Positions 10,668 through 44,265 of a stretch of DNA of 48,769 bases are shown piece by piece. The notes under the pieces were generated by a model. The model was not told where the DNA came from and ran no database searches. It saw only the letters and a program-made list of their open reading frames with translations. The stretch lies in IMG/VR virus record IMGVR_UViG_2880412407_000007. One strand, 5' to 3'. The first letter of the stretch is position 1, and every line of letters starts with the position of its first letter. The position numbers and the translations under genes are program-made. The DNA comes from a virus. Its lineage: Duplodnaviria > Heunggongvirae > Uroviricota > Caudoviricetes.

Positions 10668-13309
10668 CGCCCGCTCCCCGATAACATACCGCCATCACGC
10701 AACTGCAGCCGGAGCTCATCCTGCGCCCCCTTGCGGGCCATGTCATACACCGCCTTCATCAGCTGCGGCCCCGCCTGTCCGTTGGTGCCGTCGTTCTGAA
10801 TCACCACGTGATTGTTCTGATTAAAATTAATACCTTCCGCCCGCCGCATCTGCGCCGGACTTCCGGCACCACCCACATAACCACCTTCCGCATAGCCGCG
10901 CATCAGACGGTAAAGATTCCCCACACCTATCCGGCTGGTTGCCTCTTTCGTGAAAACAAACTCCCCGCGGTGAACTATCCCCGCAGGCTCATATTTGCCG
11001 CCCGTCCCCGTAAATCCTCCGGTCGCGAAATGGAAGTTCGCCGCCGCAGCCTCAATGGCCGTCCCCGAGGAAGCAGATGCACCACCACCGAAAGCACCGC
11101 CCATGGCGCTGCCGATACGCCCGACAATGCCCACCATGGCCTGTTTAAGCAGGATTTCTGTCATCATGGACAGCACCGAACGGGTGAATCCCCGCCAGTC
11201 TGCCTCTGCACCGGTCAGCATCGCCGCCATATTCTGTGCAATACCGTCAAAGGTCTGCGTGGCCACGCTTTTAACCTGCGAAAAACTGTCCGTCGCACTT
11301 TCTGCCCACTCGCCCCAGCCGGACTTCAGACCGGCCATCCAGCTTCCACGAAGCTGCTCCTCCGCAGACCAGGTGTTCTTCAGTGCCGATGTGGCCTTCG
11401 CCAGCGCAGCCGGATTATCACCGTACACGTCCCGAAGACGCTGCGCTTCAGACTCCCGCTGCGCCTGACGGTCAGTGAGACCGCGGGCTTTTGCGCTGAT
11501 GGCGGCCTGCTTCGCGCTCTGCTGCTCTTCAAACCGCACCGCCTGCTGTGCCAGCTCATTCAGGCGTTTCTGGTGTTCAACCTTGTCGCCCAGGTCAGCC
11601 AGCTGGCGTTTGTACTCCAGCGTCTCTTTCTCATGGGCCAGCAGGGATTTTTCCTGCCAGGATAACTGCCGTTTCGTGGCAGCCTCTTTCAGGACCGCAT
11701 ACTGACTTTCCGCCTTCCATAAATCACGGCGCTGCCGACTGATTTTCTCATTCGCACCGCTGTGTTTTTCCAGCGTCCTGAGCTCAGCTTCAAGGGCAAG
11801 CAGAGCCTCTCTTGCCTGCTCCTCTTCCCTCTCCCCGGCAGAGCGCGTTTTCGGTGATGTATGCTTTTTACCTGTCAGCTCTTCAGCCAGACGGCTGACG
11901 GCTTCCTGCTGCCCAGGACCTTTGCTGACGCCTGTTGCACGCGAGCGGTTGATGTACCCCATTTCCCCCTGGCGTATACGCGCATCCCGTTCCGCAATGG
12001 ATTTTCTCAGCGCCAGTTCATCGCGTTTTGTTTTCTCAATAAATACGCGGTTCTCTTCTGCCAGTTCACCAAACAACGCACCAACGCCGGGCACATTCTT
12101 TGTCGTTTCCCAGGCTGACTGAATAAATTCAGCCAGCGCCAGATCCCCCTGCACAAGCAGCAGCTTCACTTGTTCAACGGTTCCGGCCACCACGTCAGTG
12201 ATCAGACTGAGTGCCCCAGTGTATGATCACCTATCCATGCCCATGCGTCAGAAGTCCAGGTTTTAACATCGTCCCAGATTTTTTCCACCGGCGTGGCCGC
12301 TTTATCAAGTTGCTCCAGACGTGCATTCATGACATCCGCAAACAGGGACATCGCCTCCGTCACCGCAGCCTGTTTACCTTTCGTGCGCTCAAGCTCATCA
12401 ATATGGCGTAACTGGGAAACGCTCAGGAAGTTATACTGCTGATTCAGGGAGGCCAGCGCCTTCACCGGATCTGCTGCAATCCCTTCAAAGGCTTTTTCCA
12501 CCTTCCCGGCATCGTCCCCACCGTCTGCAGCCATCTCTGAGAGGTTTCCCCATGATCCGTAGCTGCCCGGCGGTATATTTCCCGCTTTCTGCCAGACGGG
12601 CCAGATTTTCTGCCGCCTGTCTGATACCACCACCGGCTTCATCGCTGATCACCCCGGCCATTTTCCACAATTCTGCCGTTGTGGTGGCAGCCGCCCCTCC
12701 GGTCAGGATCAGTGAACGCAATAAGGCCCGGTCAGCCTGCTCTGCCTGCCAGGCGGCGGCAGCAAGCGCGGCCAGTACGGCAACCCCGCCACCTGCCGCC
12801 ACACGGGCCACCGACATAAATCGTCCCAGCTCACCGGCATTCCGGGCATTTTCAGCCAGTGCATTTGCCGTATCTGACAGCGACTCCTCTGATGATTCAG
12901 AGGCATCCCTGATCCCGAGAAGTTCCTCCTTCAGCAGGGTAAGCAGGCTGAGCGGTCCACCGAATGAATCGCTGATCTGCCCCCCCTGCTGCAGCATGAT
13001 AAGGAAGGGATTCTGACCACCGGCAAGCTGAGTGACAATATCCGTGAACTGTGCGGGCAGTGTGCGCATGGCAGCCTTATACTGTCCGACTGATATCCCG
13101 GCTTTTTGTGCAGCCAGCGCCTGTCGGCTCAGCCCCTGTTCAACAGTACTGGCGGTTTTTCTGGCATCCGCCTCCAGACTGGAAAAATGACGGCGTACCC
13201 GGGCCATCTGTTCATCAAACCGGGCCGCATCCAGACTCAAATCAATAACCAGATCACCCGCTGGCTGGACATATCTCACACCTCCGGAAATCCCCGCTGA
13301 AGCCATCAT
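10664..13309 (-). pseudogene. H: tail tape measure protein H, split over three reading frames
   Basis: ORFs 12485..13666, 12202..12642 and 10664..12193 carry the N-terminal, middle and C-terminal parts of a lambda H-like protein (GDLVIDLSLDA...; ...GIVHRGEFVFTKEATSRIG...). Start position uncertain; the T frame runs into H without a stop. Confidence 0.8.
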
Positions 13310-23087: not shown

Positions 23088-23113
<26 letters not shown>

Positions 23114-23633
23114 TCAGCAACCCCGGTATCAGTTCATCCAGCGCGGCTGCTTTGTTCATGGCTTTGATAATATCCCGTTTCAGGAAATCAACATGTCGGT
23201 TTTCCAGTTCCGGAAAACGCCGCTGTACTGAGAGAGGGATCCCGTCAAGAATACTGGCAATTTCACCTGCGATCCGTGACAGCACGAAAGTACAGAATGC
23301 GGTTTCCACCACTTCTGCGGAGTCTCTGGCATTCTTCAGCTCCTGGGCGTCAGCCTGCGCACGCGTAAGTCGATGGCGTTCGTACTCAATAGTCCCAGGC
23401 TGGAGATCTGCCTCGCTGGCAGCCCTGTAATCCTCAACCTCTTTACGGAGTTTTTCATTTTCGATATCAGCTTCCCTCTGCGCATACCACTGAATTGCCG
23501 TGGCGGTATCAAATACAGATTCAACGCCCTTACCACCTCCGGAGACGCAAGGGAGCCCCTGAGACTGCCAGCGTTCAATCGTTCGCGGATCCACGTTGAA
23601 AATTTCGGCAAGTTTCTTTTTATTAACCTTCAT
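23088..23633 (-). CDS. nu1: terminase small subunit Nu1
   Basis: 181 aa, collinear with lambda Nu1 (C-terminal 110 aa near-identical). Confidence 0.9.
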
Positions 23634-23794
23634 GAAACAGTCTCACAACAAATACAGGGTCCGACATGAAAGTGCCCGAAAATGACTTTTTCAGGCGTTT
23701 TCATGTCGGACCTTTACGGATTCGATATTAGAAAAAACAAATAGTTATGTTCGAGAAGTACCGACATGATTTTCCCCGGAAAATTTTCATAAAT

Positions 23795-23835
23795 AGCGAA
23801 AACCCGCGAGGTCGCCGCCCCGTAACCGGTCGGAT
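23795..23835 (-). other. cos: cos site: lambda-type cosN 12-nt cohesive end plus flanking sequence
   Basis: Minus strand reads ...GGTTACG GGGCGGCGACCT CGCGGGTTTTCGCTATTTATGAAAATTTTCCGG, matching the lambda right end / cosN / left end as recalled. cosN at about 23809-23820, 160 bp upstream of Nu1. Confidence 0.75.
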
Positions 23836-24019
23836 CGCCGGAAAGGACCCGCAAAATGATAATAATTATCATCTACATGTCACAACGTGCATCTACGCCA
23901 TCAAACCACGTCAAATAATCAATTATGACGCAGGTATCGTATTAATTGATCTGCATCAAATTAACGTAAAAGCAACTTCAGATAATACAAATCAGCAACA
24001 CTGAATATGGGGCAACATT

Positions 24020-24244
24020 ATGTCATCAAAGAACAGAACCCGCAGAACAACAACCCGCAACATCCGATTTCCAAACCAGATGATTGAACAAATTAACATC
24101 GCTCTTGATCTGAAAGGTTCAGGAAATTTTTCAGCGTGGGTTATTGAAGCCTGCAGAAGAAGATTAATTAATGAAAAATATTCTCAATTTGTACCCAACA
24201 AAGACAAACACGACCAGAGAACCTGTTCAGACAGGTTTACTTAA
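24020..24244 (+). CDS. small ribbon-helix-helix-type DNA-binding protein (YlcI/DUF3950-like)
   Basis: 74 aa; basic N-terminus then IRFPNQMIEQINIAL...GSGNFSAWVIEACRRRL, an Arc/MetJ-like beta-strand plus two helices. On the opposite strand to the late operon, between cos and the lysis genes. Confidence 0.45.
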   Translation: MSSKNRTRRTTTRNIRFPNQMIEQINIALDLKGSGNFSAWVIEACRRRLINEKYSQFVPNKDKHDQRTCSDRFT

Positions 24245-24325
24245 ACGACTTATATATGACACAAAAAGCGACCACTAAAGTCGCTTTTTCTTATGGTAAC
24301 AGGCAATAACGCTCTCAGATATTTT

Positions 24326-24640
24326 TTAGCATTTTTTTGACCGCGCGTTTCCGGACGTATTCTGTTCTCCTGTCCCTTTATATCGTCGGAATACCCGCCG
24401 CTCTTCAAATCCCATTCCCAACTCAGAATGTAGTCTGTTGACCGCTTGTTTTATTTCGGTCAGGTTCACCGGTGAAACCGGAGTCCGGCGCGCCTTACGC
24501 AAACACTCTGCTCGTTTCTGTGCCGCCACTTTTCTTTTCTGGTCATCACTTAGCTGTACCATCACTTTTGCCCATCGTTCAGCTGCTCTCCGGTACAGTC
24601 CTTTTTTCTCCAGACATTCTGCCAGGTGATCATGTAGCAT
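24326..24640 (-). CDS. PerC-family transcriptional activator (Pch-like), 104 aa
   Basis: N-terminal LAECLEKKGLYRRAAERWAKVM resembles the PerC/Pch signature as recalled; size matches Pch proteins. Sits below a ~450-bp AT-rich region. Confidence 0.5.
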   Translation of the reverse strand: MLHDHLAECLEKKGLYRRAAERWAKVMVQLSDDQKRKVAAQKRAECLRKARRTPVSPVNLTEIKQAVNRLHSELGMGFEERRVFRRYKGTGEQNTSGNARSKKC

Positions 24641-25103
24641 AAGTAACCTCCGTTTATCTACAGACTGCCATCCTGAATTTACCGTCCTTAATAAGACAAC
24701 AATAAAAAACTAATTATATAAAAACAATAAAAATAATATACAAAAAAACTAAACAACAAAGAAAAGCAAATCATATCTGGCATTTTAATTGAAAGAGCAA
24801 TTACCGAACAAAAGACGCTGACTATATACTCAAAACCAAACAACAATTCTGCCAGTCAGGTATCATGGCAACACACGGAATTACCATGTTTTTGCCTTCT
24901 CTGCCCATACAATACGGGCATATACTTCATACTCTATTGTAATATTTCTATCCATGTGCCCCACTCCATTTACCTGTAAATAATATTCAAAATATTTATC
25001 ACAGAAATCGTTTTTGGCCATGAACTGAGCACACTATAAAGTCCGGAACTGACTCTTTGTTAAATTACCTTAACGTTACCAGTAACACCTTCGTAACAAA
25101 ACA

Positions 25104-25577
25104 TCACGGTATACACTGGGTACGGATATATTCCTGTGCTCCTTCCAGTTGCTTCTGCATTGCCATCAGCCGTTCTCTGAGGATGAAATAATCCCGTTCA
25201 GCGGCTTCTGCCAGTCGGGGACCGGTTGCATTATCCACGCCGGAGGTGATGGGGGCTTTACGCAAGGAGCCTGGACAGTTGGCGTTGATGCGCAGGCGCT
25301 TACGACCAGCGGCAACATCAGCACGCAGAGTTTCATTTTCAGCTCTCGCATCAGCTAATTCCCTCGAGTATCTGGCATCAAGTGCAGCAACATCACGCTG
25401 GCGCTGCTGCATATCAGTAATGGTTGCATTTGCCAGCTCCAGCTCACTGACTTTTTTATCGCGCTGCTCTTTGTAGGTTATGGCGTTATCGCGGTAATGA
25501 TTCAGCCCCAGACTAAGCGCACCACAGACCACCAGCAGAATAACGGTAAACGCGGAAAGCATTCGGTTTATGCTCAC
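25104..25577 (-). CDS. Rz: i-spanin Rz
   Basis: 157 aa, N-terminal TM segment then coiled coil; collinear with lambda Rz (NHYRDNAITYK, VAALDA, AERDYF.LRERL). Confidence 0.85.
   Translation of the reverse strand: MSINRMLSAFTVILLVVCGALSLGLNHYRDNAITYKEQRDKKVSELELANATITDMQQRQRDVAALDARYSRELADARAENETLRADVAAGRKRLRINANCPGSLRKAPITSGVDNATGPRLAEAAERDYFILRERLMAMQKQLEGAQEYIRTQCIP
25166..25351 (-). CDS. Rz1: o-spanin Rz1 (lipoprotein), embedded in Rz in the +1 frame
   Basis: Lipobox LPLVVSAC and proline-rich CVKPPSPPAWIMQPVPDWQ as in lambda Rz1. Real start probably an internal Met. Confidence 0.7.
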   Translation of the reverse strand: MRELKMKLCVLMLPLVVSACASTPTVQAPCVKPPSPPAWIMQPVPDWQKPLNGIISSSENG

Positions 25578-25719
25578 CCCACCAGCCCTGCCGAAGTCAA
25601 CGCCATCCAGGCCATGGAAAGAAAAAGAGCAACCAGCATTAGTGAAAATGAAATGCCGACAAGTACACAGAGGCTCTTCACCAGCGTTATGAGTTTATCT
25701 GATATCATTAGCCACCCCA

Positions 25720-38429: not shown

Positions 38430-39032
38430 GATGGCAGCCTCCGTTGACAGTGAAAAACTTCCACCACCGGAAACGCCAATTTCACTGGTGGTGAACTGGA
38501 CGGGGTTGGCGTAACCGGCGTCAACGGAGACCGGCGCACCTTTCGGTGCCCCCGCCCAGCCCACCATAATCTGGATGTGAGCAAATGCGGACGATAAAAA
38601 AGACGCTGGCGCGTCATACATCGCCGTTGACAATTTCAGGACGCCAATCCCGGCACCCGCTTTATAAGGTGCAGAGACAGTGTAACGTCCCGGAATTGCA
38701 GAATCAATATGCTGGTGGCGCTTCGCACTCAACAAAATCACGACGAAACAACCATAGTGGGCTGAAGCACTCATCCGGATAACCATCACGCAGGTAAATG
38801 ACCCGCTGTGTTTCAGGCTCCCAGCGTATAACGTGGACGCGACGCCCTCTTCCATCACGGAACCAGCGGTTAAGTTCCTGCACAACTCGCCCCCCACAGT
38901 CAGGTAAAGTTCTCTGTGGTTACTTACAGCCAGGTGATTTGGTAATCTGCATTCATGCCGTAACAACAGGTGTTCAGCGACACTGACCACCAGCTGTTGC
39001 GACAAACGGTTATTTGCCGTTAAACTGTTCAT
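38430..39032 (-). CDS. hypothetical protein / upstream extension of the rha reading frame (unresolved)
   Basis: 200 codons in frame with rha, starting at ATG 39032, 4 nt from the upstream gene's stop. No recognisable domain. Confidence 0.25.
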
Positions 39033-42635: not shown

Positions 42636-42962
42636 ATGACTAAAAATACTCGTTTTTCCCCCGAAGTCCGTCAGCGGGCGATTCGTATGGTTCTGGAAAG
42701 TCAGGATGAATATGACTCACAGTGGGCGGCAATTTGTTCCATTGCCCCAAAGATTGGCTGTACGCCGGAGACTCTGCGTGTCTGGGTTCGCCAGCATGAG
42801 CGGGATACCGGGGGCGGTGATGGTGGGCTCACCAGCGCTGAACGTCAGCGTCTGAAAGAGCTGGAACGTGAAAATCGTGAACTGCGCCGCAGTAACGATA
42901 TCCTTCGCCAGGCTTCCGCTTATTTTGCGAAGGCGGAGTTCGACCGCCTCTGGAAAAAATGA
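42636..42962 (+). CDS. IS629 transposase OrfA
   Basis: 108 aa, [23 protein letters not shown]... Confidence 0.85.
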
Positions 42963-43849
42963 TGCCACTGCTGGATAAGCTGCGTGAGCAGTACGGGGTC
43001 GGACCGGTATGCAGCGAACTGCATATTGCCCCGTCAACGTATTACCATTGTCAGCAACAGCGACATCATCCGGATAAACGCAGTGCCCGTGCGCAGCACG
43101 ATGACTGGCTGAAGAGAGAGATACAGCGCGTATACGATGAAAATCACCAGGTATACGGTGTGCGTAAAGTCTGGCGTCAGTTGTTACGGGAAGGTATCAG
43201 AGTGGCCAGATGCACTGTGGCACGTCTCATGGCAGTTATGGGACTTACCGGTGTTCTCCGGGGTAAAAAGGTCCGCACTACCGTCAGCCGGAAAGCCGTT
43301 GCCGCAGGCGACCGCGTAAACCGTCAGTTCGTGGCAGAACGTCCAGACCAGTTGTGGGTGGCTGATTTTACCTGGGTAAGCACATGGCAGGGCTTCGTTT
43401 ATGTGGCGTTCATCATTGATGTGTTCGCCGGATACATCGTGGGATGGCGGGTCTCATCATCCATGGAAACGGCATTCGTGCTGGATGCACTGGAGCAGGC
43501 GTTGTGGGCCCGTCGGCCGTCCGGCACAATCCACCACAGTGATAAAGGTTCTCAGTATGTATCGCTGGCCTACACGCAGCGGCTTAAGGAAGCCGGCTTA
43601 CTGGCATCAACAGGGAGTACTGGTGACTCGTATGACAACGCGATGGCGGAGAGCATCAATGGCCTTTACAAAGCGGAGGTAATACACCGTAAGCGCTGGA
43701 AAAACCGTGCAGAAGTGGAACTGGCCACACTAACGTGGGTGGACTGGTATAACAATCGACGATTGCTGGGAAGGCTGGGCCATACTCCTCCGGCAGAAGC
43801 AGAAAAAGCTTATTATGCTTCCATCGGAAACAATGATCTGGCAGCCTGA
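42959..43849 (+). CDS. IS629 transposase OrfB
   Basis: 296 aa, DDE motifs ([29 protein letters not shown]). Confidence 0.85.
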
Positions 43850-44265
43850 GTTCACAGATAAAACACTCTCCAGGAAACCCGGGGCGGTTCAGTTCTTTGC
43901 AGCCAGCTGGTACCGCAGGAATTTGCTTTTGAAGCATTAATGCATGATGCAACAGAAGCGTATTGCCAGGACATCCCCGCTCCACTGAAACGCCTTCTTC
44001 CTGACTATAAACGGATGGAAGAAAAAATTGACGCCGTAATCCGTGAGAAATACGGGTTACCCCCAGTTATGAGTACGCCCGTGAAATATGCCGATCTTAT
44101 CATGCTGGCAACCGAACGCCGCGATCTCGGGCTTGATGATGGCTCTTTCTGGCCTGTACTGGAAGGCATCCCGGCAACAGAGATGTTCAACGTGATTCCA
44201 CTGGCACCTAGCCATGCCTACGGGATGTTTATGGAACGTTTTAACGAGTTATCGGAGTTACACAA

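Follow-up and report, generated by a model that had tools for sequence, protein, structure and literature searches.

Sequence comparison points to a pchB cassette between Rz and cos in a lambdoid prophage of Escherichia coli O121:H19

The DNA between the cos site and the lysis genes of the window, by which we mean the whole stretch of 48,769 nucleotides that was analysed, is very probably best explained as the pchB cassette of an O121:H19 lambdoid prophage, made up of about 460 bp of AT-rich upstream DNA, the gene for PchB and a hairpin shared with ylcI. A preliminary description, drawn from the letters of the sequence, had placed a ribbon-helix-helix-type gene, a PerC-like gene and an AT-rich stretch between cos and the lysis genes. 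All three elements were found where it had located them, and so were the flanks, with cosN and Nu1 on one side and Rz/Rz1 on the other. The phage map on the minus strand runs from lysozyme through an antirepressor gene and Rz/Rz1 to a 463-bp gap and a 104-codon ORF, followed by a 74-codon ORF on the opposite strand, cosN, Nu1 and terminase A. The features of the locus and its neighbours are the following:

868-1854, minus strand: nleC (Peptidase_M85, E 8e-113)
23088-23633, minus strand: Nu1, with terminase A further along the same map
23809-23820, minus strand: cosN, GGGCGGCGACCT, marking where the lambda-type map ends on the right; matched exactly once in the sequence and not at all in 100 shuffles, and aligning with the right end of lambda
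24020-24244, plus strand: ylcI-type gene of 74 aa, YlcI/YnfO (DUF3950), opposite to the late operon
24150-24155, no strand: breakpoint of the lambda homology at about codon 45 of ylcI, from the alignment with lambda 47959-48502; cos-side boundary of the cassette
24263-24289, both strands: hairpin AAAAAGCGAC-CACTAAA-GTCGCTTTTT in the gap between ylcI and pch, which converge on it; formed on either strand in both the MFE and the centroid fold
24326-24640, minus strand: pchB, 104 aa, PerC-family group 1 (PchABC) by sequence, sharing the strand of the phage late genes
24641-25103, minus strand: pch upstream region of 463 bp, GC 0.333, putative promoter/regulatory region and leader
24647-24651, minus strand: Shine-Dalgarno GGAGG, 7-11 nt upstream of the pch ATG
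25104-25577, minus strand: Rz spanin gene (Pfam Phage_lysis, E 1.3e-46), last of the lysis genes, bounding the cassette on the lysis side
25166-25351, minus strand: Rz1, embedded in Rz; the equivalent position in Sakai is annotated as a lipoprotein precursor
25720-26289, minus strand: gene with a P22-type antirepressor domain
26560-27093, minus strand: lysozyme

One further ORF of 85 aa at 23747-24004 on the plus strand, which spans cosN and is only 37 aa long in lambda, was rejected as a gene.

The 104-aa protein gave a full-length match to the Pfam PerC profile PF06069 (profile positions 1-89 of 90) with an E-value of 5.4e-44 and 148.8 bits against a cut-off of 22.6, in agreement with the PerC-like character first proposed for it. 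Comparison with the Pch proteins carried the assignment further, returning 104/104 identical residues for PchB of E. coli O157:H7 Sakai and 103/104 for both PchA (L6V) and PchC (V58M). The group 1 genes pchA, pchB and pchC have been reported to differ among themselves only at coding positions 16, 172 and 183 (PMC5931665). At the DNA level the three Sakai loci were compared, namely pchA (ECs1091, prophage Sp4), pchB (ECs2182, Sp11) and pchC (ECs2737, Sp14). The interval 23600-25650, which spans Nu1-cos-ylcI-pch-Rz, showed a single mismatch in 2051 bp to Sp11, located in the upstream tract (alignment column 257, around window position 24855), while the same region was 94.6% identical to the pchA locus and 93.2% identical to the pchC locus. 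RefSeq lists the identical protein, WP_001302717.1, as 'PerC family transcriptional regulator'; another source gives the exact sequence the name 'PchABC family transcriptional regulator'. On this identity the 104-aa ORF is PchB, which published work on the identical protein would make an activator of LEE1/ler. The window shares with the Sakai pchB locus the protein, the position between Rz/Rz1 and cos and the pchB-type upstream tract, but it differs from Sp11 in its host, which is O121:H19 instead of O157:H7, in the immunity/replication region, in a Q gene split by an IS3-family element and in the effector cargo. PerC of typical EPEC belongs to the same Pfam family and likewise activates the LEE1/ler promoter; it is however encoded on the pEAF plasmid within the perABC operon, whereas the Pch cassette stands alone in prophages and occurs several times in a genome.

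Pch is among the EHEC regulators that activate LEE1/ler transcription. [quoted passage not shown] PchA lowers H-NS binding at LEE1 and, together with Ler, also at nleC-nleH-nleD (PMC4764244). PchB made from this prophage would therefore be expected to act in trans at the LEE1 promoter, with ler transcription going up and H-NS occupancy going down, and Ler would in turn act on the remaining LEE and on prophage effector genes, such as those of the nleC-nleH-nleD cluster. The link to virulence regulation suggested earlier for this prophage is supported by the activity of the identical PchB on ler (PMC5931665) and by the occurrence of nleC in the window. The pchB cassette with its AT-rich upstream region is already characterised and the present work adds nothing to the knowledge of pch; what goes slightly beyond the current annotation concerns TPR/ANR-like features in the PerC family and the gene ylcI.

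As to the mode of action, an AlphaFold2 model of PchB predicted three helices within residues 1-50 with pLDDT above 90, followed by two helices and a disordered basic tail. An exhaustive HMMER search recovered only 84 cluster representatives of the PerC family at E <=0.001, and 46 sequences were aligned. NCBIfam ANR (NF033650) was matched weakly by 41 of these 46 members at E <=0.1, with a best value of 5e-7, while PchB itself scored 13.6 bits, below the cut-off of 32, and is not a member. These matches suggest a distant homology between the PerC family and ANR, the known members of which are smaller proteins that act as anti-activators. ANR matches had been noticed before for a PerC-like protein (PMC11773190). 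Searches of the PDB by phmmer and hmmsearch gave no match for PchB or YlcI. It is possible, although we regard it as doubtful, that Pch, with a TPR-like and ANR-homologous N-terminus, relieves LEE1 silencing through protein contacts and not through sequence-specific DNA binding and that, separately, the YlcI core is an overlooked DNA-binding protein of lambda. H-NS did not co-precipitate with PchA, according to an unpublished observation of the authors of PMC4764244, and this argues against a direct contact of Pch with H-NS.

The region upstream of pch stands out by its composition. Its GC content of 0.333, compared with 0.522 for the window, is the lowest of the 450-bp windows in the 48.8 kb (0.13 percentile), with a core at about 24652-24852 of GC <=0.25 and a 150-bp minimum of 0.23; six A or T runs of at least five occur in it. 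The direct and inverted repeats that it contains are short, rich in AT and present in two copies. When aligned with the DNA upstream of the three Sakai genes pchA, pchB and pchC, the tract fell into a distal part of about 320 nt that is almost invariant, a proximal T-rich part of about 100 nt (about 24690-24790) that is of the pchB type here and of another type in pchA and pchC, and the last 50 nt or so, the leader with GGAGG, conserved in all three.

A consensus promoter scan returned no sigma-70-like site on the pch strand within the tract. A PWM scan proposed three moderate candidates with spacers of 18-19 bp. TTGTAT-19-TATAAT, with the -10 element ending at 24713, is found in the pchB type only; TTAACA-19-TATAGT, with its -10 end at 25033, is conserved throughout the copies; the third is TTGTTC-18-TAAAAT, ending at 24782. 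No transcription start is named from sequence. A promoter in the AT-rich tract would drive pch and integrate butyrate and sigma-S/NtrC signals, and the tract would probably be bound by H-NS. Control of pch is exerted also by LrhA and ppGpp/DksA. [quoted passage not shown] Silencing of the tract by H-NS, which had been put forward on account of its AT content, is plausible, as it fits the composition and the published Pch/H-NS biology. The best match to the H-NS motif TCGATAAATT within the tract had two mismatches and was not a close one, and the literature found contained no direct H-NS data for pch promoters, the text and supplements of PMC4764244 being without data for the pch loci.

Since pch is co-oriented with the late operon and the terminator scan detected no terminator-like site between Rz and pch, late read-through could add to pch expression on induction. 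In the extreme, pch would be mainly the tail of the phage late transcript, running from pR' through S, R and Rz into pch, with the AT-rich tract as a spacer and the LEE coupled to induction. Such an arrangement would account for the lack of a convincing sigma-70 consensus in the tract and for the effect of SMX-TM, an SOS condition under which O157 showed, at 12 h, increases of about 3-fold for pchB and about 8-fold for pchC (PMC5931665). We nevertheless consider it unlikely, as pch is expressed and needed for the LEE in uninduced cultures (PMC4764244, PMC6265319), the butyrate response depends on the native upstream DNA of pchA, and the conserved tract is always found together with pch. Moreover, in Sakai Sp4 the block of pchA and the lysis genes is inverted relative to the late operon and pchA is still functional. 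In this prophage the Q antiterminator gene is interrupted by the IS3-family element, at about 31005-33018 (O121 prophage identical to the right half of the window), so late read-through should be weak and the pch promoter should dominate.

At the other end of the gene, the hairpin at 24263-24289 has a stem of 10-11 bp flanked by A and T runs and likely serves, as judged from its predicted fold, as a bidirectional intrinsic terminator for pch and ylcI. A simple terminator scan omitted it, which we attribute to the maximal stem absorbing the T run.

Translation offers a further level of control, the small RNA DicF having been published as boosting that of pchA. DicF from Sakai Sp11 was predicted to form a duplex of -24.7 kcal/mol with pch +79..+105, a target segment identical in pchA, pchB and pchC, and its activation plausibly extends to the pchB copy present here. 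The window has no dicF of its own. The published occlusion of the Shine-Dalgarno sequence by an anti-Shine-Dalgarno segment was not reproduced by partition-function folding, in which GGAGG had a probability of being unpaired of 0.52, no lower than in shuffles.

The tract had been called non-coding, and the lack of family hits and of any RefSeq CDS in identical genomes agrees with this. A 52-aa ORF at 24688-24846 had no family hits and was rejected as a gene. That the tract hides another gene, either the ATG-started ORF of 46 codons at 24881-25021 on the minus strand or a small RNA, the latter in view of a 491-nt tract RNA that folds slightly better than shuffles (z -2.4), appears very improbable. 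The 46-aa ORF has neither a family hit nor a Shine-Dalgarno sequence ahead of it. When the pchB and pchC copies are compared, about 7 of its changes are nonsynonymous and 1 is synonymous, and its last Trp codon is lost in the pchA and pchC copies; it was thus classed as non-coding. The Rfam scan of 23500-25700 with E up to 1 produced only noise from eukaryotic miRNA and lncRNA families, and no small RNA is proposed.

The extent of the cassette was defined by comparison with lambda and other phages. Lambdoid phage records matched the window at 23776-24154 only, in agreement with the breakpoint inside ylcI. As placed by these alignments, the pchB cassette measures about 0.95 kb (about 24155-25103) and lies between Rz and cos in place of lambda bor-p78-p79. 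The earlier proposal that the region fills the slot of lambda bor thus holds for pch and the AT-rich tract but not for the putative ribbon-helix-helix gene, which is present beside cos in lambda as well. The term regulatory island needs the same correction, since this gene is conserved lambda backbone. The cassette resembles lambda bor and other morons between Rz and cos in using the same slot, in carrying an accessory gene for host fitness, in being AT-rich relative to the phage and in having a hairpin terminator, the putative terminator downstream of pch being its own. In contrast, bor runs against the late operon and specifies a lipoprotein, while pch follows the direction of the late genes and its product is a trans-acting regulator.

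Of 5426 complete E. coli genomes, 672 carried the 854-bp segment 24250-25103 (median 3 copies), and each of the 687 matching records covered at least 80% of it, the tract always accompanying pch. Serotypes named in the sampled rows were O157:H7, O145, O103, O45, O26, O111 and similar, besides animal isolates without serotype. Among 50,697 phage records the pch cassette was essentially absent and only short unannotated fragments derived from EDL933 were retrieved.

The 74-aa protein, checked against DUF3950, matched Pfam PF13132 with an E-value of 1.8e-18 and 66.6 bits, well above the cut-off of 25. It also matched NCBIfam YlcI_YnfO_N (NF041551) with 34.6 bits (cut-off 30), and RefSeq names WP_001303940.1 'YlcI/YnfO family protein'. 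Ribbon-helix-helix proteins of the Arc/MetJ/CopG type consist of a beta-strand and two helices joined by a G-x-S/T/N turn and dimerise through the strand. Residues 1-49 of YlcI or so probably form such a core, which would bind DNA; Foldseek returned nothing significant for YlcI. Lambda has the same ORF beside cos, at 48109-48303 on the minus strand, unannotated in NC_001416. The YlcI/YnfO family and the lambda ORF agree with the present gene in the N-terminal 49 residues or so and in position and orientation beside cos, but the tail (residues about 50-74) is unrelated to that of the lambda ORF because the mosaic junction falls inside the gene. Likewise, in 24 homologues residues 1-49 were nearly invariant and the tails unrelated. 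The 45 codons common with lambda carry 9 synonymous and 3 nonsynonymous differences, which indicates that YlcI is under purifying selection. Taken together, the alignments place ylcI in the lambda backbone, outside the acquired island, with each cargo cassette supplying a new C-terminal tail, and YlcI as a conserved backbone gene whose C-terminus is rewritten per cassette goes beyond the current annotation.

The adjacency of ylcI and pch, their convergent orientation, the common hairpin and the probable DNA binding by YlcI might suggest a dedicated pair, in which the putative ribbon-helix-helix protein represses or tunes pch or convergent transcription provides antisense control. There is little to recommend such a pairing, however, as lambda and most E. 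coli genomes lacking pch also have ylcI beside cos. A 1551-bp query gave a partial match in 4625 of 5426 genomes, mostly at 90-95% identity, compared with the 672 that have pch; the partial matches were taken as the cos-ylcI segment because this is the only part matched by lambdoid phage records. In addition, the conserved ylcI core predates the cassette, since the breakpoint of the lambda homology lies inside ylcI, and no literature on YlcI/YnfO function was found.

The functional assignment of the 104-aa protein rests on its identity to PchB and not on family membership, because PchD and PchE have hardly any effect on ler (PMC5931665) and the PICI-encoded PerC-like protein EcCIMP1_025 silences LEE1-lux (PMC11773190). 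Although function diverges to this extent within the family, a PerC-family ORF without LEE activation, inactive like PchD/PchE or repressive like EcCIMP1_025, can practically be dismissed here, as all 104 residues are those of PchB, the strongest ler activator of the five.

Finally, we considered the host from which the window derives. Positions 24000-48769 matched, at 100% identity, prophages in O121:H19 strains of lineage L1, among them 2014C-3599, 2015C-3107 and 16-9255. L1 strains of this serotype are described as having the LEE at pheV (PMC8767318), so that the LEE on which the proposed role in virulence depends would be present in the matching strains. By sequence match the source is a lambdoid prophage of LEE-positive STEC O121:H19, its LEE status being taken from the literature on the lineage. 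The occurrence in O121:H19 of an exact copy of pchB, together with its native upstream DNA, indicates that this non-O157 STEC lineage has the same prophage-to-type III secretion switch. This is of use in annotation and when virulence regulation is compared between the sampled serotypes with pch.

Comparison with closed O121:H19 genomes shows the window to be a hybrid, its two ends matching different prophages. Positions 1 to about 12,000 correspond to the nleC-bearing prophage, with 99.9% identity to FWSEC0006 at 2.77 Mb, and positions above about 26,000 to the prophage with the IS3-split Q, with 100% identity to the 2014C-3599 prophage at about 0.42 Mb. A near-identical stretch of about 14 kb (about 12-26 kb), common to both O121 prophages, lies between them and holds the whole ylcI-pch-Rz locus. 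The hybrid could reflect real recombination between prophages or an assembly join within the repeat; the pchB finding is unaffected by this question, since both prophages have the same ylcI-pch-Rz segment and the annotated proteins are identical.

The T-rich 100 bp proximal to pch (window about 24690-24790, minus strand) occurs in two types, that of pchB and that shared by pchA and pchC, and the window carries the former. In the pchB type a perfect TATAAT is present, with the candidate -10 element ending at 24713, 72 nt upstream of the pch ATG, while the pchA/pchC type of these 100 bp is devoid of that hexamer. This difference in the proximal region may explain a differential regulation of the pch paralogues. 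The segment from +79 to +105 of pch (window 24536-24562, minus strand) is identical in pchA, pchB and pchC, and was predicted to pair with the 5' end of DicF at -24.7 kcal/mol in a duplex that includes the ACCAGAA seed. The window itself holds no dicF, and the DicF sequence used for the pairing was taken from the Sakai prophage Sp11 (L003 45582-45633). The published occlusion of the SD in the pch mRNA was not reproduced by the RNA fold carried out here.

A search of 5426 complete E. coli genomes found the pch cassette (window 24250-25103) in 672, with a median of 3 copies; in 15 places it was plasmid-borne. As the phage collection (50,697 records) returned only short EDL933-derived fragments, the cassette seems to be confined to resident, often defective, prophages.

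On the other side of pch, the ylcI gene has an intact counterpart in phage lambda, for which NC_001416 carries no annotation:

L005 (lambda DNA) 2710-2904, corresponding to NC_001416 48109-48303, minus strand: YlcI/YnfO-type ORF of 64 codons, adjoining cos

Over 45 codons, this ORF and ylcI of the window show 9 synonymous against 3 nonsynonymous differences, and the lambda ORF thus looks like a real gene under selection. The junction of the lambda backbone/cargo mosaic falls within ylcI, at window about 24150-24244 (codons ~45-74). Among 24 homologues, residues 1-49 of YlcI were nearly invariant, and the C-terminal tails were unrelated and differed widely in length, giving proteins of 61-109 aa; each cargo cassette would seem to rewrite the tail. 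Beside cos, a hairpin-forming segment (23655-23717) lies between Nu1 and cos; it gives rise to spurious Rfam miRNA matches, and a terminator-like call falls within it (23696-23674, minus strand).

The two ends of the window, 1-12000 and 26000-48769, correspond to separate prophages in closed O121:H19 genomes (in FWSEC0006, near 2.77 Mb and near 4.98 Mb), and join somewhere inside a ~14-kb stretch (about 12-26 kb) near-identical in both. Either a recombinant prophage or a rearrangement of the chromosome would account for this hybrid, or else the assembly was joined within a repeat. The nleC gene (868-1854, minus strand), with a Peptidase_M85 match (E 8e-113) and an HEIIHH zinc motif, lies downstream of the tail-fibre genes, in agreement with the preliminary description.

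RefSeq annotation of a 100%-identical prophage provided the first two of the following features; the window position of the third comes from our own mapping:

about 31005-33018, minus strand: late antiterminator Q gene, split
about 31380-32557: IS3-family element inside Q
about 42640-43850 (record 420988-422201): second IS3-family copy, interrupting yfdR

Late transcription is probably defective in this prophage. An ALIL hit falls within the second IS3-family copy. Rfam further returned the following RNA genes, the first three located in the interval from the Q region to the lysis genes and the last two in the immunity/early region:

29873-29932, plus strand: AgvB (anti-GcvB sRNA), scoring exactly the gathering score
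29933-30141, minus strand: STnc100
30254-30502, minus strand: three tRNA genes
38484-38571, minus strand: C4 antisense RNA
38596-38672, minus strand: isrK

Finally, the ORF that opens the window (1-819) is a putative transposase-like gene.
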